Positions 1,879 through 19,901 of a stretch of DNA of 19,901 bases are shown here, piece after piece. Source of the DNA: a virus (taxonomy: Duplodnaviria; Heunggongvirae; Uroviricota; Caudoviricetes); IMG/VR virus record IMGVR_UViG_3300033696_000004, positions 100,031-119,931 of that record, one strand, 5' to 3'. The notes beneath the pieces are model-generated. The model ran no database searches, was not told the DNA's origin, and saw only the letters and a list, made by a program, of their open reading frames with translations. Made by a program: the position numbers and the translations under genes. Every line of letters starts with the position of its first letter. The stretch's first letter is position 1.

Positions 1879-1891
1879 TAATTAATAAATC

Positions 1892-1915
1892 GGGAGCCTT
1901 CGGGTTCCCTTTTTT
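1892..1915 (+). terminator. intrinsic terminator with T4-type cUUCGg tetraloop
   Basis: GGGAGCC-TTCG-GGTTCCC followed by T6. Confidence 0.9.
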
Positions 1916-1928
1916 ATCGGGGTATATT

Positions 1929-2198
1929 ATGGACTTGGAAAACATGTTCGTAGCGTCTGGTGAAGATGACTACGAGAAATTCGTTTATAAAAAACTAGCA
2001 GAAATTACTTTACAAGAAGTGGAAACCCTATTATTATCATGTATAGAAAAGAAAAAAGTAACAGAACCATTCTCATTGGAATTCATGGCTGTGTGGTCTA
2101 ACCAAATAGCATGTGAAAGTCATCTAGTGATGAACAACTATTATGAATCTGTTCATGATATCAAAAATTCACACGTATCATTCAGGAAAAAGAAATGA
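1929..2198 (+). CDS. hypothetical protein (89 aa)
   Basis: ORF fills the gap between the terminator and gp52, with an ATGA stop/start overlap at 2195-2198. No family recognised. Confidence 0.7.
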   Translation: MDLENMFVASGEDDYEKFVYKKLAEITLQEVETLLLSCIEKKKVTEPFSLEFMAVWSNQIACESHLVMNNYYESVHDIKNSHVSFRKKK

Positions 2199-3556
2199 AC
2201 CCAACATTTAACCCACGTAGTTTATCATCTATCATCAACATCGAAGCATTAGAATTTGCTTTGTATAACATCGAAAATCGTCACATCCCAAGCATCGTAG
2301 ACGGTCTTAAACCAGTGCAACGCTTCTTCCTGTACTCTACTTTACAGAACGCAAAGACCGCATTCAATAAGGTTGCTGCTGTTGCTGGACGTGTCTCTGA
2401 ATACGGTTACGAACATGGAGAAAGTGCTGCATCCGATGCTGGTCAGTTGATGGCGAATACATGGAATAACCATGTTCCTATTATAAAAGGTCGTGGTAAC
2501 TTCGGATCTCGCATGGTTCAAGAAATGGCTGCTCCACGTTATACTCACTGCATGGTTCATGATAATTTTAATCTATTATTCAAAGACTCAAACCTAGCAC
2601 CAATACATAGCAAAGATGAACATTTACCTCCAGCATTTTACCTTCCTATCATCCCATTCGTACTATTGAATGGTGTTAAAGGTATTGCTACTGGTTATGC
2701 TACACACATCATCCCACATGACCCACTAGATGTTACTCGTTGTGTTGTTGAATACATTGAGAAAGGTGTGATTACACATGAACCTAAATTCAAACTGCCA
2801 GATTTTCAAGGAAAACTAACAGTTGATGAAGACAACAAATTATCAATCGAGGGTATGTATACATTCAACGGTAAAACTAAGCTAACAATCACTGAGATTC
2901 CGTATAAGTACGACCGTGAAAAATATGTAGAAATCTTAGACGGATTGGAAGAGAAAGGTACTATTGTACGCTACGAAGATAATTGTGGCAAAGACAACTT
3001 TAACTTCGAAGTTACTCTAAAACGTGATTTCTTCTTAGGTCAGAGAGCAGATGAACACCACGAAATCTTTATGAAAGTTTTCAAACTTCGTCAAAGTGCA
3101 ACTCAAAACTTGACAGTACTCGATTGGGATCGTAAACTACGCAACTATAAAAAGTCATCAGACTTGATTAAAGATTTCGTCGATTATCGCACACCATTTG
3201 TACAAAAACGCATTGACAACGAAATCGAAGTATGTAATTATAAGCTAAAGTTAGCGAATGCGAAGACTGAGTTCATTGGAAGCGTTATTGATGAAACAAT
3301 CGTGTTGAAGGGTAAGACCCGTGCTAAAGCAATCAAAGAAATCGAAATTCATGAGAATCTTAAAGAATTCTCCGACCAATTAATTTCGATGAACATGTAC
3401 CACATGACCAATGATGAAATTGTTAAGTTGAAGAAGCAAACAACCGAAATCAAAAAGCAGTTATCTTATTGGAATAAAACGACGGTTAAAAAAGAATATC
3501 TAAAAGATGCTACTCAGGTATTCGTTAGTCTAGCCGAACATCAAATTAAGAAATAA
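2195..3556 (+). CDS. 52: DNA topoisomerase II medium subunit (GyrA/ParC-like breakage-reunion subunit)
   Basis: Motifs IPSIVDGLKPVQR, HGES, GNFGSR, catalytic APRY and LLNGVKGIATGYAT; length close to T4 gp52. Confidence 0.97.
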   Translation: MNPTFNPRSLSSIINIEALEFALYNIENRHIPSIVDGLKPVQRFFLYSTLQNAKTAFNKVAAVAGRVSEYGYEHGESAASDAGQLMANTWNNHVPIIKGRGNFGSRMVQEMAAPRYTHCMVHDNFNLLFKDSNLAPIHSKDEHLPPAFYLPIIPFVLLNGVKGIATGYATHIIPHDPLDVTRCVVEYIEKGVITHEPKFKLPDFQGKLTVDEDNKLSIEGMYTFNGKTKLTITEIPYKYDREKYVEILDGLEEKGTIVRYEDNCGKDNFNFEVTLKRDFFLGQRADEHHEIFMKVFKLRQSATQNLTVLDWDRKLRNYKKSSDLIKDFVDYRTPFVQKRIDNEIEVCNYKLKLANAKTEFIGSVIDETIVLKGKTRAKAIKEIEIHENLKEFSDQLISMNMYHMTNDEIVKLKKQTTEIKKQLSYWNKTTVKKEYLKDATQVFVSLAEHQIKK

Positions 3557-3572
3557 GGGCGCAAACGCCCTT
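3555..3572 (+). other. short hairpin immediately upstream of the next SD
   Basis: AAGGGCG-caaa-CGCCCTT followed directly by GGAG; no U-tract. Confidence 0.4.
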
Positions 3573-3582
3573 GGAGAATATT

Positions 3583-4011
3583 ATGAAACATGATCCGTTA
3601 TTTTACATTATAACTCACGGGCGTGGACTCTTATTATGTTGGGCTTTATACATTATCTCATTGATTTGTATTCAGTTCCAGTATGATGCAAATGAAGCTG
3701 CAATGTTGTCAGTCACTGCAATGATGGCGTTCTATGGTACATGGGGTAGTATTGAAGCGATATCATTCTGGTATCGTCATAATTGGATGGAATCACCGTT
3801 CACCAATTACCCTGTAGTGGTCAAGTTGATGTTAAGTATGTCTGACGTAGAAGTAGCACGTGGTCTAGCATACGAATTAGCAGTTATGCCATCAACGAAA
3901 GCACACACAATGTACGTAAAGTGGTGGGATGAAGTTCGTGCGTTTTGGACTATCAATTCATTCACTGCGGTTTGTTTCTGCATCACATTCATTATTATTT
4001 CATCTTTCTAA
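3583..4011 (+). CDS. hypothetical membrane protein (142 aa, about 3 TM segments)
   Basis: SD GGAG at 3573-3576 favours ATG 3583 over TTG 3571. Hydrophobic stretches LLLCWALYIISLICIQF, AAMLSVTAMMAFYGTW and FTAVCFCITFIIISSF. Confidence 0.75.
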   Translation: MKHDPLFYIITHGRGLLLCWALYIISLICIQFQYDANEAAMLSVTAMMAFYGTWGSIEAISFWYRHNWMESPFTNYPVVVKLMLSMSDVEVARGLAYELAVMPSTKAHTMYVKWWDEVRAFWTINSFTAVCFCITFIIISSF

Positions 4012-4020
4012 CGAAAGGTG

Positions 4021-4048
4021 TTGACAAAAGATGGGGTTATGATACTAT
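4021..4048 (+). promoter_or_regulatory. strong sigma70-type early promoter heading the accessory cluster
   Basis: TTGACA(4021-4026)-N16-TACTAT(4043-4048), with an extended -10 TG at 4040-4041. Confidence 0.7.
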
Positions 4049-4084
4049 GATCCCATCAAAACGGAGTTTATTAAAGGTATTAAC

Positions 4085-4234
4085 ATGAGTAAAAATAAAG
4101 TAGATTCTGGGGTTCCTAGAACAATAAACTTTGTAGCTAAACACGCTGGTATCCATCGTGCTTCTACACACATTGATCTTAAAAAGCAACAACGTACACC
4201 ACGCAAACTCAAAAACCTAACCATAGATTATTAA
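4085..4234 (+). CDS. small basic protein, 49 aa (absent from the ORF track)
   Basis: MSKNKVDSGVPRTINFVAKHAGIHRASTHIDLKKQQRTPRKLKNLTIDY*. SD AAAGGT lies 6 nt upstream, it is the first ORF after the promoter, and its stop abuts the next gene's SD (TAAGGA). Confidence 0.75.
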   Translation: MSKNKVDSGVPRTINFVAKHAGIHRASTHIDLKKQQRTPRKLKNLTIDY

Positions 4235-4243
4235 GGAAACATA

Positions 4244-4492
4244 ATGAAAGAGTTTTTCGCAAAACTATTCGGTATCAAGCAAGATTCAGTTGAACCACGT
4301 ACCATCGATTCAATCGTTAATTCGTTTGAAACTCAAATCATCGAACTTGATACACGTATTGCATTCGATATGGATGTAGCAGAAAATAATAAAAAAGTTG
4401 CTGACGAACTGCTTAAAGAAGCTGCTCGTAAAGAGAAGGACGTTGAGCGTTCAAACCGTATCAAGTCTAAAATCGAAGACATCATCAAGTAA
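4244..4492 (+). CDS. hypothetical coiled-coil protein (82 aa)
   Basis: SD TAAGGA; heptad-like charged helical sequence. Confidence 0.8.
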   Translation: MKEFFAKLFGIKQDSVEPRTIDSIVNSFETQIIELDTRIAFDMDVAENNKKVADELLKEAARKEKDVERSNRIKSKIEDIIK

Positions 4493-4498
4493 ATTAAC

Positions 4499-4518
4499 TG
4501 GGTGAGAATTCTCACCCA
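4499..4518 (+). terminator. 20-bp perfect palindrome, weak terminator or attenuator
   Basis: TGGGTGAGAA|TTCTCACCCA followed by only TTT. Confidence 0.4.
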
Positions 4519-4544
4519 TTTCATCATCCCCAACGGGAGAACAC

Positions 4545-5015
4545 ATGAAGAATCTAGGATTTGCAATTTCTACTCTGAAGTCAAACAAGGTAAAACCATT
4601 AACCAAAATGCAACTAAAGCGCATTGAAGATGATAGACTACATGAAAAAGAATACCTATTAGACTTAGAAACAATCCGCATCTATAAAAACAAAATGAGT
4701 AACGCAAAGGATCGTGGTATCAGATTTCGTCTTCTACTAGATGACATTAAATCCATGATTACATGCAAGACTTGTGCGTACACTGGAGTGGAGTTTACAA
4801 TTAGTGGCGAGCGTATGCGTACAATAGAACGTATTAATGCATCGCTAGGTTACGAGTCGGATAACACGGTTGCAGTTACTAAAGAAGCAAATAACCATAA
4901 ATCCCAACTAGATGCATACATGCACGGAACCACAATCCCAGATGAAATGAAATTAAAGTTGCTTCGAAAATCAGTATATCAATTAGAAAAGAACATAAAA
5001 GGAAAAACGAAATGA
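4545..5015 (+). CDS. HNH-like (beta-beta-alpha) fold protein resembling the family annotated as Srd/anti-sigma in T4-like phages
   Basis: Pattern AKDRGIRFRL...CAYTG.EF...TIERI....GYESDNTVAVT..AN..K; SD GGGAG. The Srd link is from memory. Confidence 0.55.
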   Translation: MKNLGFAISTLKSNKVKPLTKMQLKRIEDDRLHEKEYLLDLETIRIYKNKMSNAKDRGIRFRLLLDDIKSMITCKTCAYTGVEFTISGERMRTIERINASLGYESDNTVAVTKEANNHKSQLDAYMHGTTIPDEMKLKLLRKSVYQLEKNIKGKTK

Positions 5016-5347
5016 ATTTTGCAGAAGCATTTGCATGGGTATTATCTGGAAAACGTGCTCGTCGTCGTGCATGGAATGTAGGTGAAAGTATCTTCTTGGT
5101 TGAAGGTTCTACATTTGAAGTATCCCGTCATCCACTAGATAAAGTGTACGAAATTGGAACTCCAATCAAATACCAAGCGCACGTTGACAAAGCAAGCTGC
5201 GGTGGTATGGTTGAAGTCTATACACCCACCCAGATTGATTTGATGGCTTGTGATTGGATTGTTATCGAAGAACTGAGTCAACTCGGTCAAGTGATGCCAC
5301 TACCAATCAGTCGTAATGAATGTATTAATGTTCGTTTAGCTGCATAA
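5012..5347 (+). CDS. Tad2-like (DUF2829) protein, candidate immune-signal sponge
   Basis: MNFAEAF...GKRARRRAWN...IFLVEGSTFEV.R.PL..Y..GT.I.YQAHVD and the terminal PTQIDLMACDW match the DUF2829/Tad2 signature (MNF.EAL...GK.V.R.GWNG...Q.D.LA.DW). ATGA-coupled to the upstream gene. Confidence 0.75.
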   Translation: MNFAEAFAWVLSGKRARRRAWNVGESIFLVEGSTFEVSRHPLDKVYEIGTPIKYQAHVDKASCGGMVEVYTPTQIDLMACDWIVIEELSQLGQVMPLPISRNECINVRLAA

Positions 5348-5355: not shown

Positions 5356-5380
5356 CCTCTTGTATACTATTCAAGAGGTA
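5354..5380 (+). promoter_or_regulatory. SD-sequestering hairpin of the endolysin leader
   Basis: TACCTCTTG-tatactatt-CAAGAGGTA, a perfect 9-bp stem whose 3' arm contains the SD AAGAGGT. Confidence 0.8.
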
Positions 5381-5386
5381 ATAATT

Positions 5387-5833
5387 ATGTATAAATGTAA
5401 ACATTTTAAAGTTCAAGAGCTAGTTCCTGAACATATCTATAAAAAACGTGGTGCGAAAGCTATTGAATTGATGGATGAAAGAATCCTGATTACTATGGAT
5501 AAACTGCGTGAGATGATTGGGAAACCAATCACAGTTAATAACTGGGTATGGGGTGGAAATAGAAACTGGTCTGGACTACGTACGGCTGGCTTTTATAGCA
5601 GCCTACAATCTTACGAAAACAGTCTAAGTCAACATAAGTATGGTAGGGCAGTGGATTTTCTTGTAAAAGGAATGAGTGCAGTTGATGTTAGAAAGTTTAT
5701 CTTTGCAAATAAAGAACACTTTCCGTACATAACATTTGTGGAAACCGACATTAGTTGGGTTCACATTGACTGTAGAAACTGCGAATCAATCACAACGTGG
5801 TCTCCAGATCGTGGGTTCACTGGTACAAAATAA
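5387..5833 (+). CDS. endolysin, Zn peptidase M15 family (148 aa)
   Basis: Zn-binding motifs SQHKYGRAVD and WVHIDCR. SD AAGAGGT favours ATG 5387 over TTG 5360. Late promoter upstream and holin nearby. Confidence 0.85.
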   Translation: MYKCKHFKVQELVPEHIYKKRGAKAIELMDERILITMDKLREMIGKPITVNNWVWGGNRNWSGLRTAGFYSSLQSYENSLSQHKYGRAVDFLVKGMSAVDVRKFIFANKEHFPYITFVETDISWVHIDCRNCESITTWSPDRGFTGTK

Positions 5834-6257: not shown

Positions 6258-6935
6258 TTACATCTTATGTATTCCAATCTCACGAGCACCTTGAGTACAC
6301 GAAACAAATAGTTGTTGCAATTTTTTTGGTGACTCAAACGTTTTCGGTTTTTCGTTCCAGTAAATCCCAAACACCCCAGTGTAAACCCCCTTTCTATTAA
6401 AAATTGGACATGTATATTTGAACGGAATAGCATCGCTGCCATTTTTATTCAACTTATACTCTTCCATTTCTCCCCAGAACGGCATTCCCAGTATATGTTC
6501 TTTATACTCCTTTTCACTCTTATCGACTCCAATCACCTTGAGTTTATTTTCATTCATGTTTTCTAGAATTTTACCTTCATAGTGTACCATCTCTTTGAAG
6601 TGATGTAAGTCTTCGGGCTTATACATGAAGACCGCAACCATACCAGAATTAACTATTGAATACACTGACTGAGTTTGAACACGGATAGCAGCTTCGTAGT
6701 CTTCTTTCTGTATTTTTCTCTCAGCTTCAATGTAAGCTTCATATGAACGACCATAATTAAATGATTCGATTGTCTTGACAACACTCTCTTTCTCTATGTA
6801 TAATAGAGCAGAAAATACAATCATAAACGTGACAAAAATTCGATTAAATGAGATTGAACCATCTTTATCAATAAAGAAATTGACTAGATTCTTGATCACG
6901 GAAATCTGAGAATCTGTTATTTTAGGTTGGTTCAT
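6258..6935 (-). CDS. t: holin, T4 gp t family
   Basis: Single TM segment (RIFVTFMIVFSALLYI) followed by a large periplasmic domain: YKPEDL..F..M..YEG, VDKSE.EY..H..G, YTCPIFN..G.Y.G...IYW, SCTQGAR.IG. Confidence 0.93.
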   Translation of the reverse strand: MNQPKITDSQISVIKNLVNFFIDKDGSISFNRIFVTFMIVFSALLYIEKESVVKTIESFNYGRSYEAYIEAERKIQKEDYEAAIRVQTQSVYSIVNSGMVAVFMYKPEDLHHFKEMVHYEGKILENMNENKLKVIGVDKSEKEYKEHILGMPFWGEMEEYKLNKNGSDAIPFKYTCPIFNRKGVYTGVFGIYWNEKPKTFESPKKLQQLFVSCTQGAREIGIHKM

Positions 6936-6962: not shown

Positions 6963-6970
6963 TATTTATA
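6963..6970 (-). promoter_or_regulatory. T4 late promoter for holin
   Basis: Perfect TATAAATA on the - strand, 27 nt upstream of the holin ATG. Confidence 0.9.
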
Positions 6971-6974
6971 CACT

Positions 6975-6997
6975 AAAAAGAGACCCGAAGGTCTCCT
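6975..6997 (-). terminator. cUUCGg terminator after distal fibre A
   Basis: - strand AGGAGACC-TTCG-GGTCTC-TTTTT. Confidence 0.9.
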
Positions 6998-7003
6998 AAT
7001 TTA

Positions 7004-10000
7004 TTACGCAGCTTCTAAAGCTTCAACTCGTGCCAATAATGCATCATTAGCAGATTTTAATTCTTTAATAGCTTCTAATTGCATAGCAACAATAGCACCC
7101 AAATCAACACCCTCTGTTTTAGTAAGAGAACGTTTCTTTAAATTCGATTCAGTAGTATCATAAAACTCATGATATGCTTCTGGTAAGAATTGTTTTACCG
7201 ATTTAGGTTTAATACTAATACGGGGATTTGTATCTTCATGCATTGCATCAGAACGAACAATTTTATTCGAAGTAATACCACAAACAATGTCTAATGCAGT
7301 TGTTGCAGTCTTTGTTAAGAATAATGGATGAACATCAGTCACTTTAGCAGATTCGATGATTACACCCTTAGTTCTAAACCCTCTTCCGCCCCATGTATAT
7401 TGATTATTACCCACATAAAGTATACTTTCTGTATTGTTAAAATGTCCATCAACCGCATGAACACCCTGAGAAGCCCAGTTGGATTGCCCCCATGTAGTTA
7501 CTTTCCATATAGAGAATGCACTATGGTTCATTCCGTTTAGTGCTGGAGTCAGTAACAGAGCAGATGGACGGGTCTGCCAAGATACCCACGAACCACCGTG
7601 TACATTGTCTGCACTAAATGCCCCTTGCCCTCCACCATTACCAGTAACATAAAGACAATTTGATTGCAACGACATAGTTGAACCACCCTGCTCTCCACGG
7701 TTCATACTCATGTCTCCATTTGGATCATTGTAGATATAACCACTAGTAGCAGTACCAGCAGCATTTTGCCAAACTATATGCTTACGCCCATCGCCACGCA
7801 TGTATTGATTCAATGAATTTATAACTGGCTTTTGGAAAGTAACATCATTAGCACTAATCCTCATTGATGAATTAGTATCCCACCAATTACTACCCATTCC
7901 TAACGCAATATACTGACCAGTGGTTCCTGAACCAAGTATACCGACTCCACCTAAAGTAGTACTGCCATTGGTAAATGTTAAACCCCTAGCCCAACCGCCA
8001 GTAGTAGATGGTCTTTCTACTCTATAATCACCGTAATAGTTAGTAATTCCTCTTGCAGCTAATGATAACTTAACATCAAGTGAACCGTTCATTGTGGAAC
8101 CGCCAGTTCCACTAGTAGCGAAACTCTGCATAAATGCAGCACTAGTAAGATTCATACTCTCGCCAGTGAATCGTTTAGCGTTCATTTCACCTAATACAGT
8201 ACCACCTTGGGTGTATACACTTAATTTTCCACCACTACGACATTGCAATGAAGCAGCGTACTTACCAGGTTGATGGAATCCTAATGTCGGGAACACCGTA
8301 TTAGGTGAGCCATTACCATTAAGCATAACACCACCAGTGCTGTAATCATTACCTGTACCAATTGCTGTAAGACGAGTAACAGTACCATTAGTAACAGTAG
8401 GAGCACCTACATCAGCAGCAGTTGGTTTATTACCAGTGTGATAGAATTCATTAAATGTACCCCATGTAGTTGAGTCATAGTTCTGTTGACGGAAACCAGC
8501 ACGAGCAGCACCACTTTTACTGAATATCAATGCATTTGATAACTTAACATCAGAACCAGTGTAACCAGAAACCCAAACAACATCAGACCAAGATAGACTA
8601 GGAATACCAGCAGCAGAATTAAGCATATGACAGCGCAATTTACCACCACCAAAATAATTAGGCTTCTCACTGCCACCACTAATGTAATGACCGACAATAT
8701 CATTAGCTCGTGTAGCAGTAGCAGTCTTACCTAAGAATCGACCATCCGCTTCCGTTTTAGAATAAGTACCTAACCATGTACGAATAGCACCAGTATCAGA
8801 ACAATAACGAGTATAATTATCTGTAGTGTTATTAACACGGAAAGCCATTGCACCAGTACATCTAGTTTCATTCGCATAATTAGAACGCAATAAACGAACA
8901 TTAATATCAGCAGCAGCATCACGAACAGCAACAGTGTTAGCAGTTGCAGCAGAAGTGTGTGCTGTATTAGGAACATTACTTAGACCTACATCAGAAGCAG
9001 TTGGTTTGTTACCAGAAGAATAAACACGGTGACCATTTTCGTAAATAGAACCACCAGATCTAAATTCACCATTCGTCTTAAACGACCAAGCCCTACTAGT
9101 ACCATCATGCTTAATCATATGAAGAGTAGTTTCAGCAACACCAGAAGCGTTAACACTTTGACCCATAGACGTAACCCAATCTTCAGCACCTACAGTGTGT
9201 ATACCTTTCTGTTTCCAAGCAGGGAAGTAAGCAGATGTTTGAGCAGTACTATAATCGTTGTAGAATGGAGCTAGTGTTCCATATTGACTTGCAAGTGCAT
9301 TAGATTCAGCGTAGTATGCTTTGACACCACGTGATACTGTTGCATCTCCAGTGTTAAGATCTAACATCAATGGATGACGACCATTTGATCCATTATCCCA
9401 ACTATCACTATTATTACCGCTTGATCGTAGAACATAAAACACATTTGAGTTTGTGTGTAAAAATGCACCTTTATTGTCCGTGTCTTTTAGGTTAATAGTA
9501 GGTCCACTATTATTAAGAGTAAGTCTACCATCAACATTAATTGAACCACCACGGTATGAATTAACCCACGATTCGTTGAACCAATAGTCATTTCTTCCGA
9601 TTACCGACCACGCACTACTACCAGTTGCGGCTCTAGCAGGAAGAATACCCCCGTTAGATGCACTGTCTCCACCAGACACAATCCATATTCTTGAGTTTTT
9701 AGTCTGTGAATTGTTTGCACCATCTGCCCAATAAGAATCTCCACCAATGTCTTCCCAACTAGGTTTATATCCAGTAGTGTAGATACGGTTAGTCTTTAAA
9801 TAACCAGTTCCATCAGGACGAGCATTGAAAAGTTCAGTTCCGTCCAACGACGCAGCGAATCCAACAGATCCAGAACTAGTATCACGCTTATGTCCGAATA
9901 AAAGTTTATTATCGTACCAGTCAGCTTCAACCCCAGACGCAATTGTGTTTACTGCTCGGTTGGTGTTTGTAAGCCTAACTGCATTTTGCTCGGTTGCTAC

Positions 10001-11566
10001 AACTTCAAGTCCTTTACTAGCAAATAACTTACCGTGTGCAGTAACTTCAGATGTGTTATCAGTTGTTGAATGACCACGTTTGAATTCGAGTATGTTATTC
10101 CCACCACGCCAATTAATGTAAATACTGCTTCCGACTGGAGTGTTTGTACTAGAAATCAAAGTTCCACTCGTATCGTTTTTGTCGAAACGATTAGTGGAAA
10201 TAGATGGTACAGTCAACGCACCAGTCATGGTATCACCAAGTTTTGAAACAGCGTTGGTTACTTCCGTTACGTCGGGCTTATGGAATCTAGAAAAATACTC
10301 AACATTATCAATCCACATATTGTTCGGTGAACCGCTAGTTACTTCTTGCATCAACACAGAAACATTATATTTATTATCATGTTTCGTCTTGACACGAACT
10401 TTGTCATCGATTATACTTAATTCAGGGTGGTTACTACCATCATTTTTATGTGCTATAAGAGTAAGAGCAATAACACCAGTTGAATTAACTGTTATGTTAT
10501 ACACTGCACCCGTAGAAGTACCTGTACTTTGAGTTACTAATCTGACCAAATACGATGAATCATTTTTAAGAGAGTTACCATCTGCACCAAGCAATTCTTC
10601 TGTTATTGTATGTGACACATAATACATACGTGTACTAAATGGAGTAGTTAACGATGGTTGAACACCTAACTCGCTTGGAGTTGGTTTATGACCTTCGTGG
10701 TATACCCACTTATCAGCATCATCTTGCCATACCGATAATTTCAATCCGTCAGCACCAGTTCCGTGAATACGAGTATGTGTTTCTGTGTCTGCACTATTAC
10801 CAATTCTTAAAATTTTATCAGCTGAGAATGAAATCAGTCTTGAATTATCCAATGCATTATACGTGTTACTAAGCGTAACTCCACGTAGATATGCATTACT
10901 AGTGATGTCAATATTACCACCACGGTATGAATTAGACCATACTTCCTTCCACTGAGATGCAGCATCACCTAAGTTAATTAGTTTAGTTGAACTATTGAAT
11001 GGTTTAATTAATGTTGTTATGGTATGATCGAATATTAAATTACTCTTCGCTTTAATGTAACCAGCAGTCGAGTTATCCCAGTATAAATTCCCACCGACAT
11101 CAGCCCACGTTGGTTTGAATCCAGCATGGTATGCTCGGTTACCATCAATGTAAACTTCACCATCTTTCTTGATAGACATCCACGCTTCGGAATCAGACCA
11201 TGGCGAACCAGTCACATACTGACCAAAAAAGTAGTTACTCAATTCAGTTGCATTACCAGTCCATTGAGCACCAGCGAATCCTAGGTTTGATCCTATTCTA
11301 TTTTTATAAACCACACCACGAGCAAGGTTACCATCAGTAAGCGGAGTCCATTCGATACCACTACCTTCGGTCATTTTCAATTTACCAGTCATAGTATCGC
11401 CAGAACGGTTTACAGCATTTATTTCTTGTGTTGTTGGCTTATGTGCTTCTGTATAAACCTTATGACCTTTATAGTCTAGTCGAGTATCTACCGTTTGGAA
11501 TTCTAGATTACCTTGATGCCAGATTAAGTTTCCACCAAGCAAGGTTCCAGATTTTAAATTTGCCAT
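7004..11566 (-). CDS. distal long tail fibre A (gp36-gp37-like fusion, 1520 aa) with a degenerate S74-like C-terminal chaperone
   Basis: N-terminus MANLKSGTLLGGNLIWHQGN resembles T4 gp36 MADLKVGSTTGGSVIWHQGN. Repeated YxxGxKPTxxDVG and GDTMTG fibre motifs. C-terminal coiled coil GVDLGAIVAMQLEAIKELK..L.ARVEALE. SD AAGGAG. Confidence 0.88.
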   Translation of the reverse strand: MANLKSGTLLGGNLIWHQGNLEFQTVDTRLDYKGHKVYTEAHKPTTQEINAVNRSGDTMTGKLKMTEGSGIEWTPLTDGNLARGVVYKNRIGSNLGFAGAQWTGNATELSNYFFGQYVTGSPWSDSEAWMSIKKDGEVYIDGNRAYHAGFKPTWADVGGNLYWDNSTAGYIKAKSNLIFDHTITTLIKPFNSSTKLINLGDAASQWKEVWSNSYRGGNIDITSNAYLRGVTLSNTYNALDNSRLISFSADKILRIGNSADTETHTRIHGTGADGLKLSVWQDDADKWVYHEGHKPTPSELGVQPSLTTPFSTRMYYVSHTITEELLGADGNSLKNDSSYLVRLVTQSTGTSTGAVYNITVNSTGVIALTLIAHKNDGSNHPELSIIDDKVRVKTKHDNKYNVSVLMQEVTSGSPNNMWIDNVEYFSRFHKPDVTEVTNAVSKLGDTMTGALTVPSISTNRFDKNDTSGTLISSTNTPVGSSIYINWRGGNNILEFKRGHSTTDNTSEVTAHGKLFASKGLEVVATEQNAVRLTNTNRAVNTIASGVEADWYDNKLLFGHKRDTSSGSVGFAASLDGTELFNARPDGTGYLKTNRIYTTGYKPSWEDIGGDSYWADGANNSQTKNSRIWIVSGGDSASNGGILPARAATGSSAWSVIGRNDYWFNESWVNSYRGGSINVDGRLTLNNSGPTINLKDTDNKGAFLHTNSNVFYVLRSSGNNSDSWDNGSNGRHPLMLDLNTGDATVSRGVKAYYAESNALASQYGTLAPFYNDYSTAQTSAYFPAWKQKGIHTVGAEDWVTSMGQSVNASGVAETTLHMIKHDGTSRAWSFKTNGEFRSGGSIYENGHRVYSSGNKPTASDVGLSNVPNTAHTSAATANTVAVRDAAADINVRLLRSNYANETRCTGAMAFRVNNTTDNYTRYCSDTGAIRTWLGTYSKTEADGRFLGKTATATRANDIVGHYISGGSEKPNYFGGGKLRCHMLNSAAGIPSLSWSDVVWVSGYTGSDVKLSNALIFSKSGAARAGFRQQNYDSTTWGTFNEFYHTGNKPTAADVGAPTVTNGTVTRLTAIGTGNDYSTGGVMLNGNGSPNTVFPTLGFHQPGKYAASLQCRSGGKLSVYTQGGTVLGEMNAKRFTGESMNLTSAAFMQSFATSGTGGSTMNGSLDVKLSLAARGITNYYGDYRVERPSTTGGWARGLTFTNGSTTLGGVGILGSGTTGQYIALGMGSNWWDTNSSMRISANDVTFQKPVINSLNQYMRGDGRKHIVWQNAAGTATSGYIYNDPNGDMSMNRGEQGGSTMSLQSNCLYVTGNGGGQGAFSADNVHGGSWVSWQTRPSALLLTPALNGMNHSAFSIWKVTTWGQSNWASQGVHAVDGHFNNTESILYVGNNQYTWGGRGFRTKGVIIESAKVTDVHPLFLTKTATTALDIVCGITSNKIVRSDAMHEDTNPRISIKPKSVKQFLPEAYHEFYDTTESNLKKRSLTKTEGVDLGAIVAMQLEAIKELKSANDALLARVEALEAA
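11434..11566 (-). repeat. duplicated fibre 5' end, copy A (pairs with 15900-16032)
   Basis: Hand alignment gives 111/133 nt identical; 41 of the first 45 aa are identical. Confidence 0.9.
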
Positions 11567-11597
11567 ATCAGGCTCCTTATAATTCGAATTATAATTT

Positions 11598-11605
11598 TAT
11601 TTAGT
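11598..11605 (-). promoter_or_regulatory. late promoter for fibre A
   Basis: ACTAAATA on the - strand, lying between the upstream terminator and the SD. Confidence 0.6.
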
Positions 11606-11612
11606 AGAAACG

Positions 11613-11637
11613 AAAAAGGAGACCCGAAGGTCTCCTT
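11613..11637 (-). terminator. cUUCGg terminator after distal fibre B
   Basis: - strand AAGGAGACC-TTCG-GGTCTCCTT-TTT; an 18-nt core is identical to 6980-6997. Confidence 0.9.
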
Positions 11638-11640
11638 AAT

Positions 11641-14600
11641 CTATTTAGAAAGTTCATTTACACGCTTTGTTAACGTTTCAATTTGTTTCTGTTGCTCCTT
11701 GATTGCTTCGACAAACAACGCACTCAATTGAGCATACGCAACTGTTAAGTTACCTTCTTTATCTTCAAGTACAGCTTGTGGTAGAACTTCTTGAACATCT
11801 TGTGCGATCACACCAGCTTGTTCACCTACACCAGCAGTGTCATTCTTCCATTCATAGATAACACCGTTCAGTTTAGAAACCTTCTCAACAGCATTTTCTA
11901 CATTATGAATGTTAGTTTTCAATCTACGGTCAGAATAAGCAGTTACGTTACCACTGAATACAACATCACCAGTTTCGAGGTTGAATGTTGCTGGATGACG
12001 ACCATTTGGACCACTATCCCATGATGTAGCATTATTACCAGTACCACGAAGTAGATACATCAAGTTACTATTACAGTGCCACGCACAAGAACGAGAATCA
12101 GTGTCTTGGAACCATAACGTAGGACTGCCATTATTAATGTACATCTGGTTTGAGGTTTTTATCGAACTTGGGGATATGAATTCACCATCATCGGTAAATG
12201 ACCATACGTATCTATTACTATTATCATCATTACGAGAGATGATATTTAGACCTTTACTTCCGTTACATTCGATCATCATGTAGGAACCAGCAGTACCACT
12301 CAATTGCAAGTATGAATAAGCGCCTTTGTGAGTTTTGAAACCAGAACCAACATGCGCACCAGTTGAACGTATTTGACCGTTACCACCGTCAAGGAATACA
12401 CGAGCATCACCATCAGCAGCAACATACATACCCCATGAACCACTTCTTAATGATTCGGGAATGAACGGAGTACTAGCACCAGCAACACAATAACCAATCC
12501 CGTACATGTTACCTAAAGCGGTATCACTTGGTTTGTAGTTTGTTCCAATTGCATAGATAGGGTTGGTTTTAATAGAGTTGTCACCAACATTATTATAAGA
12601 ACCAACCAAGTAACCAGAGCTATGAGATTGACGGTTTATAGTTCCTTTCATGTCAGCAGAACCAAACTTCAAGGTTGCGTTCTTGTCGTTTTCGCCAGCA
12701 TTGAAACTCATAGCACTAATCTTAGTTCCACCTACTTGACGATAGTTGAAATACAATTCAGCAGATGATGATGTGAAGTTAATCTCATTATCATAGTTAA
12801 TATGTAGACCACCGCCACCCGTTCCAGTTTGCCATAATGAATTTGGTTTGAATCCTTCAGTATAAACGTTTTTCCACGCAGACCAAGAACCACCGCCATC
12901 ATTACGACCACGAATAGCCATGCGGTTGCCATTACGCTCAACAAATGTTTGAGTAACGAACTGACCACTTGTACTATTAGAACCGATAACTTGCAGTGTA
13001 CCATAGTCACAACCAGCAGGTGGTTTATTAGTCATACTACCAGTAGCATAAACGTTAAATGATTCGGTTTTTACATAACTGTTTAAATCAATTGCACCAG
13101 TTAGTTTACGAGCAATCGAAGAAACGCCACTATTTGCTTCGATAAATCCAGAACCAGAAATCGAAGCAACGTTAGTACTACCACGCTGGAATATCCAACC
13201 ACGGTTAGTTGTGTCCGACATTGTGAGATAAGTAGCCCAATCTCCAGTAACGCCACCATGAGTACCAGAACCAACCGTACCAGTGAACATCATACCATAT
13301 TCAGGTTTTCCTTCTTTACCACCACCATGCAATGATAGTCCTAGTTTAGAAGTACTTGACGCATTAGAAAGACCTAATCCAGTACCAGCAGTAATAGATT
13401 TATTAGCACGGAAATCACCACGAATACCCATGTGACCGCCACGAGTGTCGATGTACGCAGCATTTTCACCCTTTGGTACTGCTTGATTGTCGATAGTAGA
13501 TTCAAAACCAACACCGAACCATGATTTGATGTTAATGTTAGTTGTGGTAAACGAAGCACCATCACCTTGACCAGCACCAATGTGACAGCTACCGTTTTGT
13601 GTCCATGATAAATTGCCAGTCATTGTATCACCAGCTTTATTCACAGCACCAACTTCAGCAGGAGTAGGTTTATGGTATTCAGAATAAACACGTTGACCGA
13701 CATCATACAATTGACCACTCGTATCACACAACAACGTTGTACCATTAGATGCATACAATGGACGATGCATTACTACCTTATCAGTTTGGTAATCAGTACC
13801 AGATGAATAGCCTAAGTACAAAATACCATCAGAACCAGATGCAGATAATGTAACGGCTTTGTTGTCATGAGACCATAGGACTTTCTTCCCATCTTTCATC
13901 TTAATACCATTATGACCAGTGAAAGTCAATGCACCCGTCATGGTATCACCAGTTTTAGCAACAGCGTTTACATCAGAAGAAGTTGGTTTCGCACGAGAGT
14001 TATAAATTACGTTATTTTCAGACCACTTAGTAATTCCAGTTGGTTCAGCAGTTCCAACAGCAACACGATTCCAAACAGCAGAAGCATTCATTGAAGTCGT
14101 TAACATGTAAATCAATCCAGAGTCTGGATAACTACTTGATTTCAAGTAGATTTCGTATGTCGAACCAGAAATGTGTTTGTATCCAACATCAGTAATAGCA
14201 AGTGACATTCCACCGTCATAGAATCCAACAACGGTTAATCCAGTAGCAGGAGAACCATTACCAGTACGGAACTGGATAGTTTGGGTTCCTAGTTGAGACT
14301 CAATACCAACGTTAAAGCCATTACCGCCAGTTATTTCCAGTTTAATTGTAGATGCATTATTAGGCATAACTACAGTCATAGCTTTATGCCATTGGACACC
14401 AGATGCTAAACCAGATACCTGTTGACCACGTACAGCGTTAATTTCAGCCAACGATGGTTTATCACCTTCGTGGTAGATACGTTTACCAGTATGATCCGAA
14501 TTAGTACAGTACCGTAACTTATTACGAGCAATACGAATATAGTCAGTCCAATCAGCAGCATCAGAAGGTCTACCACCAACCAAATAATCACCAACTATAT

Positions 14601-16032
14601 CAGCACAACCGATCATAGTTTGATGACCAGCACGTTGATGTATAACACCAAAACCAGTGTTCACGGTTGTTATAATTTTACCGCCAGCATCAACATAACC
14701 AGAAGACCAGATACCAGAATCACCTAACGCAGCTTTATGAGTACCGTTAGTAACCCAAACCATTTGATGACCGCCAGCCATTTGACCGCCAGTAGTATTA
14801 TTCGTGTGTTTGTATGCTAGACCGTATAGATTACCGAAGTCAGAACCGTCAGCGGCATTACGATAAGCTGTACCCATTGACCAGATTTGATCAGTCTTTG
14901 TGGAGTCATAAGTACCGAAGATACCTTTATCACGTGAAGTAGAAACCAAGTCACCGCTGAAACTATCAGAAGCATCAGAACGTAAGAATTGTGAACTATC
15001 AAGTCCATCTAACTTATCAGAGTCAACTGCTTTACCAGCAGCTGGCAACGCACCAACATCAGCAGTAGTTGGTTTGAAACTGGTTGAATAAATCTTCGAA
15101 GCACTAGCAGCACTTAAATCCAAGTCGTCATGATAAGCAAAATGACCATCGGATCTTCTTCCAAAGTATAGCATTGTGTTGTTTTGGGTTTTGAATCCAA
15201 TACTAACATTACCATCTAAATTAGTACGATGAATTATTAGTTTTGGATCAGCGTTAGCCGTTGTAATAGTCAACGCACCAGTCATTGTATCACCAGTATC
15301 ACGAACAGCACCAGCAATGTCGATTACAGTTGGTTTATTTCCAGTTGTATAGATCTTTCCTTCTTGACCAGACCCATAAATGTACACACCATCAGATTGT
15401 ATGGTTATACGACGATTAGAATGAGTATATGATTGCAAAGACACATCAGAAGTTGACGTACTTCCTCTACCTACATACCAACTATTTGCCCCTGCAATCT
15501 TACCAAGAATATAACTAGCTTGATTTGCATCACTATTTGCAACCATAAATCCGTTATTTGCGTTGATGTTCAATACTCCAGTCATTGTATCACCAGATAC
15601 AGAAACTGTGGTATTATCTACATAGTCTTTACGAGTTAAGCTGTTAGCAGATGAATGTTGAGCAACTGTTGTGAGATACGGAACATTAGCAGAAATAGAT
15701 CCAGTTTGAACCGTTAGTCTAGTTGTCCCACCATCAATCCCCGTTGATTTTGTAGAGTTTCCTAATACGACAAATCCACCATTATGCAGCAATCTATTAT
15801 TGCTACCATCTTGAATTACGTCAGATATTGATGTACTAAATTTCAACACACCAGTCATAGTATCGCCAGCACGGGATACTAGGTTTAAATCGTTATTAGT
15901 TGGTTTATGTGCTTCAGTATAAACCATGTGACCTTTATAGTCAAGTCTAGTATCTACCGTGTTGAATTCTAGGTTACCCTGATGCCAAATTAGGTTACCA
16001 CCTATAAGAGTACCAGCTTTTAAGTTAGCCAT
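11641..16032 (-). CDS. distal long tail fibre B (gp36-gp37-like fusion, 1463 aa) with Peptidase S74 intramolecular chaperone
   Basis: gp36-like N-terminus and further gp36-like blocks (LTRKDYVD...GDTMTG; GDGASF...NI.SWFGVGF). C-terminal Y|SDRRLKTNI...GVIAQDVQEVLP.AV...EAIKEQ coiled coil. SD GGAGA. Confidence 0.9.
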   Translation of the reverse strand: MANLKAGTLIGGNLIWHQGNLEFNTVDTRLDYKGHMVYTEAHKPTNNDLNLVSRAGDTMTGVLKFSTSISDVIQDGSNNRLLHNGGFVVLGNSTKSTGIDGGTTRLTVQTGSISANVPYLTTVAQHSSANSLTRKDYVDNTTVSVSGDTMTGVLNINANNGFMVANSDANQASYILGKIAGANSWYVGRGSTSTSDVSLQSYTHSNRRITIQSDGVYIYGSGQEGKIYTTGNKPTVIDIAGAVRDTGDTMTGALTITTANADPKLIIHRTNLDGNVSIGFKTQNNTMLYFGRRSDGHFAYHDDLDLSAASASKIYSTSFKPTTADVGALPAAGKAVDSDKLDGLDSSQFLRSDASDSFSGDLVSTSRDKGIFGTYDSTKTDQIWSMGTAYRNAADGSDFGNLYGLAYKHTNNTTGGQMAGGHQMVWVTNGTHKAALGDSGIWSSGYVDAGGKIITTVNTGFGVIHQRAGHQTMIGCADIVGDYLVGGRPSDAADWTDYIRIARNKLRYCTNSDHTGKRIYHEGDKPSLAEINAVRGQQVSGLASGVQWHKAMTVVMPNNASTIKLEITGGNGFNVGIESQLGTQTIQFRTGNGSPATGLTVVGFYDGGMSLAITDVGYKHISGSTYEIYLKSSSYPDSGLIYMLTTSMNASAVWNRVAVGTAEPTGITKWSENNVIYNSRAKPTSSDVNAVAKTGDTMTGALTFTGHNGIKMKDGKKVLWSHDNKAVTLSASGSDGILYLGYSSGTDYQTDKVVMHRPLYASNGTTLLCDTSGQLYDVGQRVYSEYHKPTPAEVGAVNKAGDTMTGNLSWTQNGSCHIGAGQGDGASFTTTNINIKSWFGVGFESTIDNQAVPKGENAAYIDTRGGHMGIRGDFRANKSITAGTGLGLSNASSTSKLGLSLHGGGKEGKPEYGMMFTGTVGSGTHGGVTGDWATYLTMSDTTNRGWIFQRGSTNVASISGSGFIEANSGVSSIARKLTGAIDLNSYVKTESFNVYATGSMTNKPPAGCDYGTLQVIGSNSTSGQFVTQTFVERNGNRMAIRGRNDGGGSWSAWKNVYTEGFKPNSLWQTGTGGGGLHINYDNEINFTSSSAELYFNYRQVGGTKISAMSFNAGENDKNATLKFGSADMKGTINRQSHSSGYLVGSYNNVGDNSIKTNPIYAIGTNYKPSDTALGNMYGIGYCVAGASTPFIPESLRSGSWGMYVAADGDARVFLDGGNGQIRSTGAHVGSGFKTHKGAYSYLQLSGTAGSYMMIECNGSKGLNIISRNDDNSNRYVWSFTDDGEFISPSSIKTSNQMYINNGSPTLWFQDTDSRSCAWHCNSNLMYLLRGTGNNATSWDSGPNGRHPATFNLETGDVVFSGNVTAYSDRRLKTNIHNVENAVEKVSKLNGVIYEWKNDTAGVGEQAGVIAQDVQEVLPQAVLEDKEGNLTVAYAQLSALFVEAIKEQQKQIETLTKRVNELSK
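14973..15033 (-). repeat. KAVDSDKLD.LDSSQFLRSD module, copy in fibre B (pairs with 18832-18892 in gp34)
   Basis: 52/61 nt identical by hand alignment. Confidence 0.85.
15900..16032 (-). repeat. duplicated fibre 5' end, copy B (pairs with 11434-11566)
   Basis: 111/133 nt identical, with differences mostly synonymous. Confidence 0.9.
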
Positions 16033-16066: not shown

Positions 16067-16074
16067 TATTTATT
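16067..16074 (-). promoter_or_regulatory. late promoter for fibre B
   Basis: AATAAATA on the - strand (7/8 match), 34 nt upstream of the ATG. Confidence 0.65.
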
Positions 16075-16094: not shown

Positions 16095-16116
16095 TTCTGG
16101 CTGCTTGCAGCCAGAA
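16095..16116 (-). terminator. hairpin, probable terminator after gp35
   Basis: TTCTGGCTG-caag-CAGCCAGAA with a weak downstream tract (TTCTT). Confidence 0.6.
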
Positions 16117-17959: not shown

Positions 17960-19901
17960 TTATAGAACGTCAGTCCAAATGAAGTCTAATGACTTCGTTG
18001 ATTTGTTTGGACGTAGGATTACGTTACCGATTTGTAGCCAGTTCTTGATCTTCAGGTCTTCCATTGCTGATCCTGTTATGTCAGCCTTCTCGTCGATCAT
18101 TTCCTTCAATACCTTAATCGCAGACGCAGTAGCTGCAATGTCTTTAGACGGATTTGATAATGAGTCAGTTAACGTAGTTACGCCATGAACACCAGAAGTA
18201 TTAGCAATTGGTACAGATTTCAACTTATTATAGTTGATCTTTGCATCCGATTCTATTACAGTAGTTGCACCAACATTGAAGTGATTAGCTTTGACTGCAT
18301 TTAGGAAAGTAGCAACTCCACCAGGTGCAATCGTAACTTGTGTAGCAACTCCAGATTCAGTAATTGCAAATGAACCAGTTGATAGTTCAATTGTCCATAA
18401 CTTGTTAGAGGAATCTGTCTCAACCAATCCAATGTGACTAGAATTAGCTTTTATTGTTAGGTTACCATTGATTGTATCACCAGTAACGTTTACAAAACGA
18501 CCATCAGCTTCAGACTTGCTATAAGAACCAACTTCTGCTGGAGTTGGTTTATGCCCTTCGTGATACATTTTATACCGATTCGAACCAACTTGGAAGAATG
18601 CGTTTTCAGAGCCAGATAAATTAACCGCAAATTGGTCTAGATATTTACCACCCCACCCAGTCAAGTTCAATCTGTGTTGGTCATCTTCTGAACCAGAAGC
18701 ACAACCACCTTGAACGTATACATCAGTCCCAGAAGCAAGCAATCGAACCCCATAATCTTTACCATCGGTGTGTCTAATTTTTTGGTCATACTTATTGGTA
18801 TGAGTTAATATACCTTGCATAGTATCACTAACATCAGAACGCAAGAATTGAGAACTATCTAAGTTATCTAGCTTATCAGAGTCAACGGCTTTCGCAGTCT
18901 TCGGTAGATAGTTAGCGAGCGCATAGTTCAATCCACGTGGAGAAACTACAAATGGATTATGATCATACTCACCAGCTGGTTTAGTAGATCCAGCAGTTGT
19001 ATTACCAACCCAAGTTTCAGCTAACGTAGCAGTATGACCAGTACCGTAGTTAGTTTCCGTCATATTGAAATCAGCGTGTTGCGTCAACGCACGATTTAAT
19101 GAATTAGGAGTTACGATTCTAGTATGGTCAGTTTTTCCAGTGATCTCGGTGTCGGTAGCGATTTCAGCAATACCAGCCATTCCTTCCGTTGCACGACGTG
19201 CATTCAGTTTCTTGGGTGTAATAACATGAATGTCACTTGCAGTTTTAGAATCAACCACATTAGCTTCTGCTTGTGTAGCTACCTCTAAAGTACCACGTTG
19301 TGATTCAGTAGCAACCGTGATGTCTAATGTAACTTTACCCCATAGGTTACCCGAACGGCGAATACCACTTACTTCAACTGGAGTAAAGTGATCATAAGCA
19401 AGCCATGTCTTGAACTTCTTGGGTGTGATGTAATGATAGTCACTTGCTCCAGCATCAACCTCACCCTGAGTACCAATCTCGGTCAATCCCCACATGGTTT
19501 CTGTTGACTTGCGGTTATGTAAAGTCTTAGGAGAAACTACATAAGGGTTGTGTAATGCACCAGCATTAACCTCTGCTTGTGTAGCAGTCTCAACAATGCC
19601 AGCCATAGCTTCGGTCGAACGACGTGCATCTAACGTCTTAGGGGTTACCATAACACGATTTGAAGCAGCACTTCCTTGACTGTTGACTTCACTCTGATCG
19701 GCTATGTATGCTACACCACGTGAAAACTCTGTTGCTTGTGCATCATTCAATGACTTTGGTGTAAGTACATAAGGTTCTGTATGTGTTGATGTATTCCAAC
19801 TATACACACCAGTACCAGCAGCCGAACGAGTTGAAGCAGGATTACCATTCTGGATTGTTTTAACACTACCAGCTTGACTATCCGTACCACGACGCTGATC
19901 T
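17960..19901 (-). CDS. 34: long tail fibre proximal subunit, C-terminal part (5' truncated by window)
   Basis: The frame is open to the window edge (DQRRGTDSQAG...). It has gp34 repeats (VTPKTL..R.STE...G..E.ATQ.E, ATESQRGTLEVATQ) and C-terminus LKIKNWLQIGNVILRP..KSLDFIW, like T4 LTIRDFLRIGNVRIVP..KTVKFEW. Confidence 0.93.
   Translation of the reverse strand, partial: DQRRGTDSQAGSVKTIQNGNPASTRSAAGTGVYSWNTSTHTEPYVLTPKSLNDAQATEFSRGVAYIADQSEVNSQGSAASNRVMVTPKTLDARRSTEAMAGIVETATQAEVNAGALHNPYVVSPKTLHNRKSTETMWGLTEIGTQGEVDAGASDYHYITPKKFKTWLAYDHFTPVEVSGIRRSGNLWGKVTLDITVATESQRGTLEVATQAEANVVDSKTASDIHVITPKKLNARRATEGMAGIAEIATDTEITGKTDHTRIVTPNSLNRALTQHADFNMTETNYGTGHTATLAETWVGNTTAGSTKPAGEYDHNPFVVSPRGLNYALANYLPKTAKAVDSDKLDNLDSSQFLRSDVSDTMQGILTHTNKYDQKIRHTDGKDYGVRLLASGTDVYVQGGCASGSEDDQHRLNLTGWGGKYLDQFAVNLSGSENAFFQVGSNRYKMYHEGHKPTPAEVGSYSKSEADGRFVNVTGDTINGNLTIKANSSHIGLVETDSSNKLWTIELSTGSFAITESGVATQVTIAPGGVATFLNAVKANHFNVGATTVIESDAKINYNKLKSVPIANTSGVHGVTTLTDSLSNPSKDIAATASAIKVLKEMIDEKADITGSAMEDLKIKNWLQIGNVILRPNKSTKSLDFIWTDVL
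18832..18892 (-). repeat. KAVDSDKLD.LDSSQFLRSD module, copy in gp34 (pairs with 14973-15033)
   Basis: 52/61 nt identical. Confidence 0.85.

Follow-up and report, generated by a model that had tools for sequence, protein, structure and literature searches.

We looked at the tail-fibre locus in a stretch of DNA of 19,901 nt (19.9 kb; hereafter the window), which forms the end of a 119,931-bp IMG/VR virus contig (IMGVR_UViG_3300033696_000004, CheckV completeness about 67%) from an uncultured marine T4-like phage known from metagenomes only. In L011, a longer ENA scaffold (128,588 bp) from this phage, the gene order is rnh-34-35-A-B-t-asiA, in which gp34 and gp35 are followed by two fibre genes, called here fibre A and fibre B, then by holin t and asiA. 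The order in T4 is rnh-34-35-36-37-38-t-asiA, the same synteny. Both fibre genes lie between gp35 and holin t, as the T4-type distal half-fibre does, and they form a tandem: two adjacent genes with a gp36-type N-terminus, for a single gp34 and a single gp35. The preliminary description of the window had reported two tandem genes of about 1500 residues sharing 41 of their first 45 residues, with one gp34 and one gp35 upstream, and this was borne out, the two proteins having 1463 and 1520 residues. Both fibre genes are covered at 99% or more by Logan contigs, with no indels or joints (three metagenome runs from one study). Between fibre B and holin t there is no gp38-type gene, the 68-nt gap being taken up by a hairpin and a promoter box; a search of the contig for gp38 (PF05268) gave no match, but control genomes were silent too, so that search is uninformative. 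In the RB43 sub-type the second fibre is followed by a T2-type gp38 adhesin gene, a trait that is absent here. On this gene content, we assign the locus to the duplicated distal-fibre kind, outside the RB43 sub-type. The features are collected in Table 1.

Table 1. Features of the fibre locus (positions in the window).
Feature	Positions	Strand	Remarks
gp34 proximal half-fibre, C-terminal ~650 aa	17960..19901	-	phrog_972 E 5.7e-133, profile positions 551-916; cut at window end
gp35 knee/hinge protein, 594 aa	16165..17949	-	phrog_1154, phrog_16097
Late-promoter-like box AATAAATA	16067..16074	-	One mismatch to T4 late-promoter consensus; 35-42 nt before A start
Fibre A, fused gp36/gp37-type distal half-fibre, 1463 aa	11641..16032	-	Pfam and 34 PHROG tail-fibre families
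A residues 1-66, gp36-type N-terminal attachment module	15835..16032	-	20/45 to T4 gp36, 41/45 to B
A residues 1367-1463, S74 intramolecular chaperone (predicted)	11644..11934	-	PF13884, Ser-Asp..Lys motif
Terminator-like hairpin GGAGACCTTCGGGTCTCC and T-run after fibre A	11616..11637	-	22/23 identical to hairpin after B; repeat family D16
Fibre B, second fused distal half-fibre, 1520 aa, mosaic	7004..11566	-	Intact open frame; PHROG families
B residues 1-66, same gp36-type N-terminal module	11369..11566	-	20/45 to T4 gp36, ungapped
B residues 649-751, copy of A domain 1258-1366 (11935-12261)	9314..9622	-	41% over 109 aa
B residues 839-1520, exchangeable receptor-binding cassette (putative)	7007..9052	-	Starts at KPT boundary motif
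B residues 1422-1518, divergent S74-like chaperone domain and coiled coil (predicted)	7013..7303	-	hhalign
Hairpin after fibre B and T-run	6978-6997	-	Then late-promoter box
Late-promoter box TATAAATA before holin t	6963-6970	-	Exact T4 match; hairpin and box together 6963..6997
Holin t	6258..6935	-	PF11031 E 6.5e-22, phrog_860; closes locus as in T4

The two fibre proteins begin with the same module. In addition to the 41 identical residues out of 45, the first 133 nt match at 111 positions, and the first 45 codons include 16 synonymous and 4 non-synonymous differences. For codons 2-45, the Nei-Gojobori method gave a synonymous distance (dS) of 1.08, a non-synonymous distance (dN) of 0.061 and a ratio (omega) of 0.056. 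Since dS is near saturation and the protein nearly constant, both copies have long been under purifying selection, in agreement with the earlier claim of mostly synonymous differences and of purifying selection on both. A recent duplication or gene conversion of the N-terminus was also considered and is excluded by the dS of 1.08. BLASTP widened the shared block to 52 of 66 residues (79%, E 7e-30), and at the DNA level it covers 192 nt at 80% (repeat family D4); the identity stops at the first 'HKPT' module boundary. In A as in B the module stands at the start of the protein, with N-terminal matches to PHROG families 5667, 8378, 16472 and 1425. Within the contig it is present only in A and B, and their N-termini match any other phage compared at no more than 27 of 45 positions. 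Further along the chains, the motif (V/I)Y..G.KPT..(D/E)(V/I)G has seven copies in A, six or seven in B and a single one in gp34, KPT-boundary and GDTMTG motifs recur six to nine times in both A and B, and the motif repeats form families of 5-9 copies at the DNA level. We take the KPT motifs to be the usual boundaries of fibre modules, of which the shared N-terminus would be the first.

Fibre A carries the expected domains of a distal fibre, with Pfam matches to gp37_trimer (residues 160-217), Phage_T4_gp36 (813-883) and Peptidase_S74 (1367-1422, E 7e-19); its shaft domains PF03903 and PF20744 were detected at E 3.8e-8 and 3e-9. A cleavage motif, AYS|DRRLK, is predicted with Ser1367 and Lys1372, and the C-terminal S74 region aligns to the MYRF ICA domain (7DC3) and to the C-terminus of gp37 from Salmonella phage S16, a T2-type protein (PDB 6F45_A; last ~120 residues, E 1.6e-8). 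Unlike the window, where gp38 is not found next to the fibre genes, S16 encodes next door a gp38 adhesin that caps the matured tip. Fibre A is thus predicted to end in a canonical self-cleaving S74 chaperone, and its mature chain would have 1366 residues.

Fibre B has no Pfam family at E 0.01, PF03903 and PF20744 being absent at E up to 10, and nothing was found for it in a sequence search against PDB chains. It matches PHROG tail-fibre families 14064, 19567, 16472, 5667 and 8378 and is a mosaic of three parts, namely the adaptor (residues 1-66), a shaft ending at residues 649-751, and a distal cassette (839-1520). The end of the shaft resembles a domain that sits, in A, immediately before the S74 cleavage site (E 2e-18; DNA repeat D9), which suggests that B may have arisen by fusing a former fibre end onto a further fibre. 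According to the preliminary description, shaft and tip differ after the shared N-terminus; this holds for the chains as wholes but not for this domain, nor for the KPT and GDTMTG motifs present in both proteins. The distal 680 residues of B are 83-88% identical to residues 330-1086 of a 1086-residue fibre, P0006, with an N-terminus unrelated to that of B; its gene (1697-4957) lies on an unrelated 5716-bp Logan contig (L010), downstream of a different fibre gene. Between the two cassettes dS is 0.11-0.30 and omega 0.37-0.63. We read this as a recent move of the receptor-binding end between fibres with different attachment ends, under selection, and B and P0006 would be a direct example of a receptor-binding cassette passing between fibres with different attachment chemistry. 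Decay of one of the two genes, named earlier as an outcome that would count against two working fibres, is not what we see, because B keeps a 4.6-kb open frame and its cassette, 83-88% identical to that of another phage's fibre, has an omega below 1.

The C-terminus of B gave no Pfam match to the S74 domain. In a comparison by hhalign with a profile of 15 S74 C-termini, it matched with a probability of 97.6% and an E value of 3.7e-12, over columns 46-132 of the 136 in the template, and its nearest ESM Atlas clusters are 100% PF13884 (score 0.95). The match spans the body and the coiled coil only: the Ser-Asp..Lys and G-IAQ columns are unmatched, B reading VTDVHPL, with Thr-Asp where A has Ser-Asp. 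We take the C-terminus of B to be an S74-like fold acting as a divergent chaperone, whose self-cleavage is doubtful. An AlphaFold2 (AF2) model of the B tip (1072-1520), made with a 4-row alignment, had a mean predicted local distance difference test (pLDDT) value of 29.7 and was unusable. Since mature A (1366 residues) and B (1520 residues) are each about as long as T4 gp36 and gp37 together (1247 residues), either one should be able to form a whole distal half-fibre. Both genes are intact, of full distal-half-fibre size and provided with a gp36-type N-terminus, in line with the earlier reading of two full-length distal half-fibres.

Upstream, gp34 is interrupted by the assembly and gp35 is enlarged. 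The scaffold gene calls split gp34 into 601 and 596 residues, a division that we rejected, as a run of 10 N lies exactly at the join (window 19892-19901 and beyond; L011 8040-8049). The IMG/VR contig ends there, inside gp34, and the N-terminal 601 residues follow on L011 just past the run, at PHROG profile positions 3-543. Because the profile continues across the gap, gp34 is one gene and not two. The 119.9-kb contig holds one copy of gp35, which consists of a T4-gp35-like core (residues ~1-355) and an extra C-terminal beta-sandwich domain (~355-594). BLASTP matches to gp35 of Aeromonas phage 25, RB43 and T4 are confined to the first ~350 residues. The AF2 model of gp35 is good (pLDDT 90.8, predicted template modelling score 0.85), and its best BFVD matches are gp35 hinge connectors, while in the PDB it matches ILEI/FAM3-like and carbohydrate-binding module (CBM)-like sandwiches. 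The extra domain is absent from T4 gp35 and has no self-similarity to the gp35 core; it also occurs at the C-terminus of KVP40-type hinge proteins of ~890 residues and as stand-alone proteins of ~340-360 residues. A second docking site, glycan binding and contact with the whiskers are possible roles for it. Among phages with two distal fibres, gp35 has 528 residues in RB43, 594 in the window, 588 in the metagenomic relative L025 and a mass of 99 kDa in 6E35.1a; in the single-distal-fibre phages T4 and Aeromonas phage 25 it has 372 and 380. Gp35 length as a marker of two fibres is a lead only, from a sample of seven phages, and the BFVD matches span 315-1261 residues.

Late-promoter boxes were called as consensus matches, with the T4 late promoter as reference. 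Fibre A has such a box, AATAAATA, with a hairpin at 16095-16116 upstream of it, and each fibre gene ends in a near-identical hairpin, GGAGACCTTCGGGTCTC(C), followed by a T-run. A and B each have their own ribosome-binding site, terminator hairpin and C-terminal chaperone-type domain. Fibre B has no clear TATAAATA box, only a degenerate one (AATAAAAT or ACTAAATA), whose position aligns with that of the holin promoter. Synthesis of B may depend on read-through or on a weak promoter, and B may hence reach a lower level than A. The hairpin GGAGACCTTCGGGTCTC, T-run and late-promoter-like box stand together both at the A/B junction (11614-11637) and at the B/holin junction (6975-6997), to be compared with 16095-16116; the hairpin-promoter unit looks like a reusable spacer, possibly duplicated together with the fibre cassette.

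The duplicated distal-fibre arrangement is already known, having been on record since 2003 for T4-like phages. GenBank AY266307 (2003) lists 'gp 36-37.1' and 'gp 36-37.2' of RB43 as two long-tail-fibre proteins, the first with an amino-terminal region like T2 gp36 and the second organised alike, and Trojet et al. 2011 (PMC3157838) noted a g37 duplication of unclear function in RB43 and Aeh1. The novelty implied by the preliminary description therefore fails, and its caveat that duplications in vibriophages might be on record was right, since we found them in all KVP40-like vibriophages examined. By tblastn against 50,697 phage records, the 66-residue module was found in 1426 records at 1559 places, at the start of gp36 or of fused distal fibres, so that about 130 records would hold two copies. 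The two-copy records include KVP40-like vibriophages, the RB43/RB16 group and several Cronobacter and Enterobacter phages. Close relatives of the phage itself were not found in IMG/VR by gp35 peptide patterns, and a megablast of the 9-kb locus against the same 50,697 records gave a 96-nt match only.

RB43 (NC_007023, genes 36 and 37) is like the window in having tandem fused genes between gp35 and holin t, gp36-type N-termini and an enlarged gp35. It is unlike it in that its proteins are half as long (756 and 812 residues), its N-termini match at only 31 of 45 positions and a T2-type gp38 gene follows, whereas the locus described here lacks gp38, encodes proteins of about 1500 residues and has a divergent chaperone domain in B. 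KVP40-like phages (Schizotequatrovirus) also have two fibre genes next to holin t, with gp36-type N-termini that match at 38-41 of 45 positions (VP6E351A_0368/_0365 in 6E35.1a, NVP1081O_300/_299 in 1.081.O and _0348/_0345 in D479), and their hinge protein, like gp35 of the window, has an extra C-terminal domain. In contrast to the window, they encode gp34 and gp35 elsewhere in the genome, 6E35.1a and D479 have extra virion proteins between the two fibre genes, and their N-termini match those of A and B at only 19-24 of 45 positions. The fibre locus of KVP40-like phages is a recombination hotspot (PMC12028318). In Vibrio phage EniLVp02, the pair _0087/_0086 shares essentially all of the first 45 residues once a mis-called start is corrected. 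The annotated start of _0086 (PP209424, L013, 12299-12341) is too far downstream, and an ATG 42 nt upstream restores the full module, with an N-terminus nearly identical to that of _0087; the annotated start of _0087 (9040) itself lies 39 nt inside the module. T4 resembles the window in the position and order of the locus, in the gp36 N-terminal module and in the combined length of gp36 and gp37, close to that of each fibre here; T4 has one distal half-fibre made of two proteins, with gp38 and gp57 as separate chaperones, and in the window there are two, each a single chain that brings its own chaperone domain at the C-terminus.

Metagenomic relatives that share the synteny and the gp35 type have two genes with a gp36-type N-terminus and a third S74 fibre (1329/647/1096, 874/641/1094 and 939/618/1072 residues), the last set following a gp35 of 588 residues that is 52% identical to that of the window. 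In L021, L023 and L025, the third fibre (618-647 residues) lies between the two genes with a gp36-type N-terminus; it has an S74 domain but not that N-terminus, and might extend the first fibre in series or branch off sideways.

The N-termini of paired fibres are often alike within a phage. In five of eight other two-fibre genomes examined they match at 38 or more of 45 positions (among them 41 in D479, 39 in 6E35.1a and 38 in 1.081.O), and in RB43 at 31, whereas between genera they match at 17-27. This similarity within each phage fits a shared partner. In the L021-L023 clade, N-termini match at 29-30 of 45 positions within a genome and at 39-44 between orthologues, and the first 16 residues are invariant; we read these as two separate orthologous lineages, which shows that both genes have long been retained. 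By mass spectrometry of purified 6E35.1a virions, VP6E351A_0368 and VP6E351A_0365 were detected with 49/77 and 259/365 spectral counts, respectively (PMC12028318, Table S4), and in the genome (MW824377) two size-matched open frames both start with the gp36-type module. Hence, in at least one cultured member of this kind, both proteins are in the particles, in unequal amounts.

In T4, gp35 attaches to gp36 as a monomer, after which the half-fibres are joined (PMC3004832). The explanation that we favour, and hold to be moderately probable, is that A and B form homotrimers and serve as alternative distal half-fibres competing for one knee, which would give mixed fibres and two receptor specificities per virion. 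Each would be a fused gp36/gp37-type protein able to serve as the distal half of the long tail fibre, with its first 45-66 residues as the adaptor that joins it to the knee (gp35, and through gp35 to gp34) and with the C-terminal chaperone domain, canonical S74 in A and divergent in B, driving trimer folding from the far end. Both proteins would appear late in infection and vie for one knee as the fibres assemble, so that any of the six fibres of a virion would bear either A or B. The virion would then be a mosaic of two receptor specificities, probably in unequal amounts, and new specificities could be gained by cassette swaps at the repeated KPT boundaries with the adaptor left unchanged. 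What we infer in this scheme is that A and B bind gp35, are expressed together and mix on single particles. The phage probably has two ways to recognise its hosts, and two fibres could be had in this manner with no need for an invertase or a diversity-generating retroelement, as had been proposed. On the whole, the preliminary interpretation, in which both trimers load onto one hinge to give mixed fibres, two virion subpopulations or a branched fibre, is supported in part.

Several points weigh against this explanation. Fibre B stands behind a good terminator hairpin with only a degenerate box, so its expression level is uncertain. The N-termini of the L021-L023 clade, alike at only 29-30 of 45 positions, leave room for two different docking sites, the contact with gp35 is not placed in these 45 residues by what is known from T4, and gp35 carries an extra domain that T4 gp35 lacks. 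Support from a phage known from metagenomes alone is indirect, and Trojet et al. 2011 (PMC3157838) left room for only one copy being used. Co-folding of gp35 (49-row alignment) with three copies of B 1-90 scored 0.00, which speaks neither for nor against docking. In the literature, we found nothing that settles between mixed fibres, branched fibres and a single used copy, and nothing on mixed or heterogeneous virions.

One alternative is that the knee is branched: the enlarged gp35 would offer two docking sites and each fibre would carry both A and B, giving a Y-shaped fibre and up to 12 tips per virion. We consider this unlikely. The two-fibre phages sampled do all have a larger gp35 than T4 and Aeromonas phage 25, RB43 gp35 repeats part of its core (residues 423-501, corresponding to T4 gp35 223-296), the extra domain is a well-folded beta-sandwich common to KVP40-type hinges, and the L021-L023 clade keeps two distinct N-terminal lineages. 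On the other side, the sample is tiny and gp35 length varies for other reasons (the BFVD range given above), the extra domain in the window has no likeness to the core, and its CBM-like fold suits glycan binding equally; moreover, according to Trojet et al. 2011 (PMC3157838), the size of the fibres in RB43 and Aeh1 agrees with one gp37 trimer. That the extra beta-sandwich is itself the second docking site of a naturally two-tipped T4-type fibre, with gp35 enlargement marking branching across T4-like phages, seems to us a rather doubtful proposition.

It is equally improbable, in our estimate, that one fibre is normally used and the other is a weakly or conditionally expressed spare, kept for recombination or being lost. 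Trojet et al. 2011 (PMC3157838) raised this possibility for RB43 and Aeh1, allowing either a mixture or one expressed version, and the terminator hairpin before B, with no clear TATAAATA box, would suit it. It sits badly with two frames open over ~4.5 kb each, with an N-terminal omega of 0.056 at saturated dS and a B cassette omega below 1, with paralogues kept as orthologous pairs in several lineages, and with the presence of both counterparts in 6E35.1a virions. A serial fibre, with A as a giant gp36 and B as gp37 end to end, or A/B heterotrimers, is very improbable: the gene order does mimic T4 36-37 and RefSeq names the RB43 pair '36' and '37', but B starts like gp36 and not like gp37 (the T4 gp37 N-terminus is unrelated), A has the terminus expected of a free fibre tip, a predicted self-cleaving S74 chaperone, a distal half built in series would be roughly double the length of that in T4, and the chains are not collinear past residue 66, which makes a common trimer register implausible.

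What T4-like phages do with a duplicated distal fibre is a question that has stood since the duplication was noted for RB43 and Aeh1. By itself the window brings an incremental gain, as a clean and unusually long case with two full-length single-chain fibres, a conserved adaptor and a moving cassette. If A and B do load onto one knee, a fixed adaptor with swappable cassettes would be a simple natural design for a dual or tunable host range, and such a one-knee design would be of interest for engineering phage specificity. Two receptor-binding fibres with a proposed dual specificity are also found in Mu and in Shigella phage Sf14 (PMC11821841). Mu differs in using DNA inversion (the invertible G segment), one set being expressed at a time, and Sf14 in carrying both sets on a Mu-like baseplate; the phage described here would use no switch, the choice being made at the knee of its T4-type jointed fibre.

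Outside the window, the contig encodes on the minus strand a 503-residue protein with long poly-glycine runs (RGGNGG...GGGGGG; G000:C1:42912-44423, L020 213-1724). It has no Pfam match and only low-complexity matches in the PDB, which confirm neither an identity as a gp38-type adhesin nor a link to fibre A; were it such an adhesin, it might cap fibre A, whose C-terminus resembles that of S16 gp37. The plus-strand neighbours of the fibre locus are a topoisomerase II medium subunit, a Tad2-like protein, an M15 peptidase and AsiA, a neighbourhood that resembles that of KVP40-like vibriophages. The Tad2-like (DUF2829) gene (5012-5347, plus strand) and the M15 peptidase gene (5360-5833, plus strand) lie just past asiA, and the neighbourhood in 1.081.O is related.

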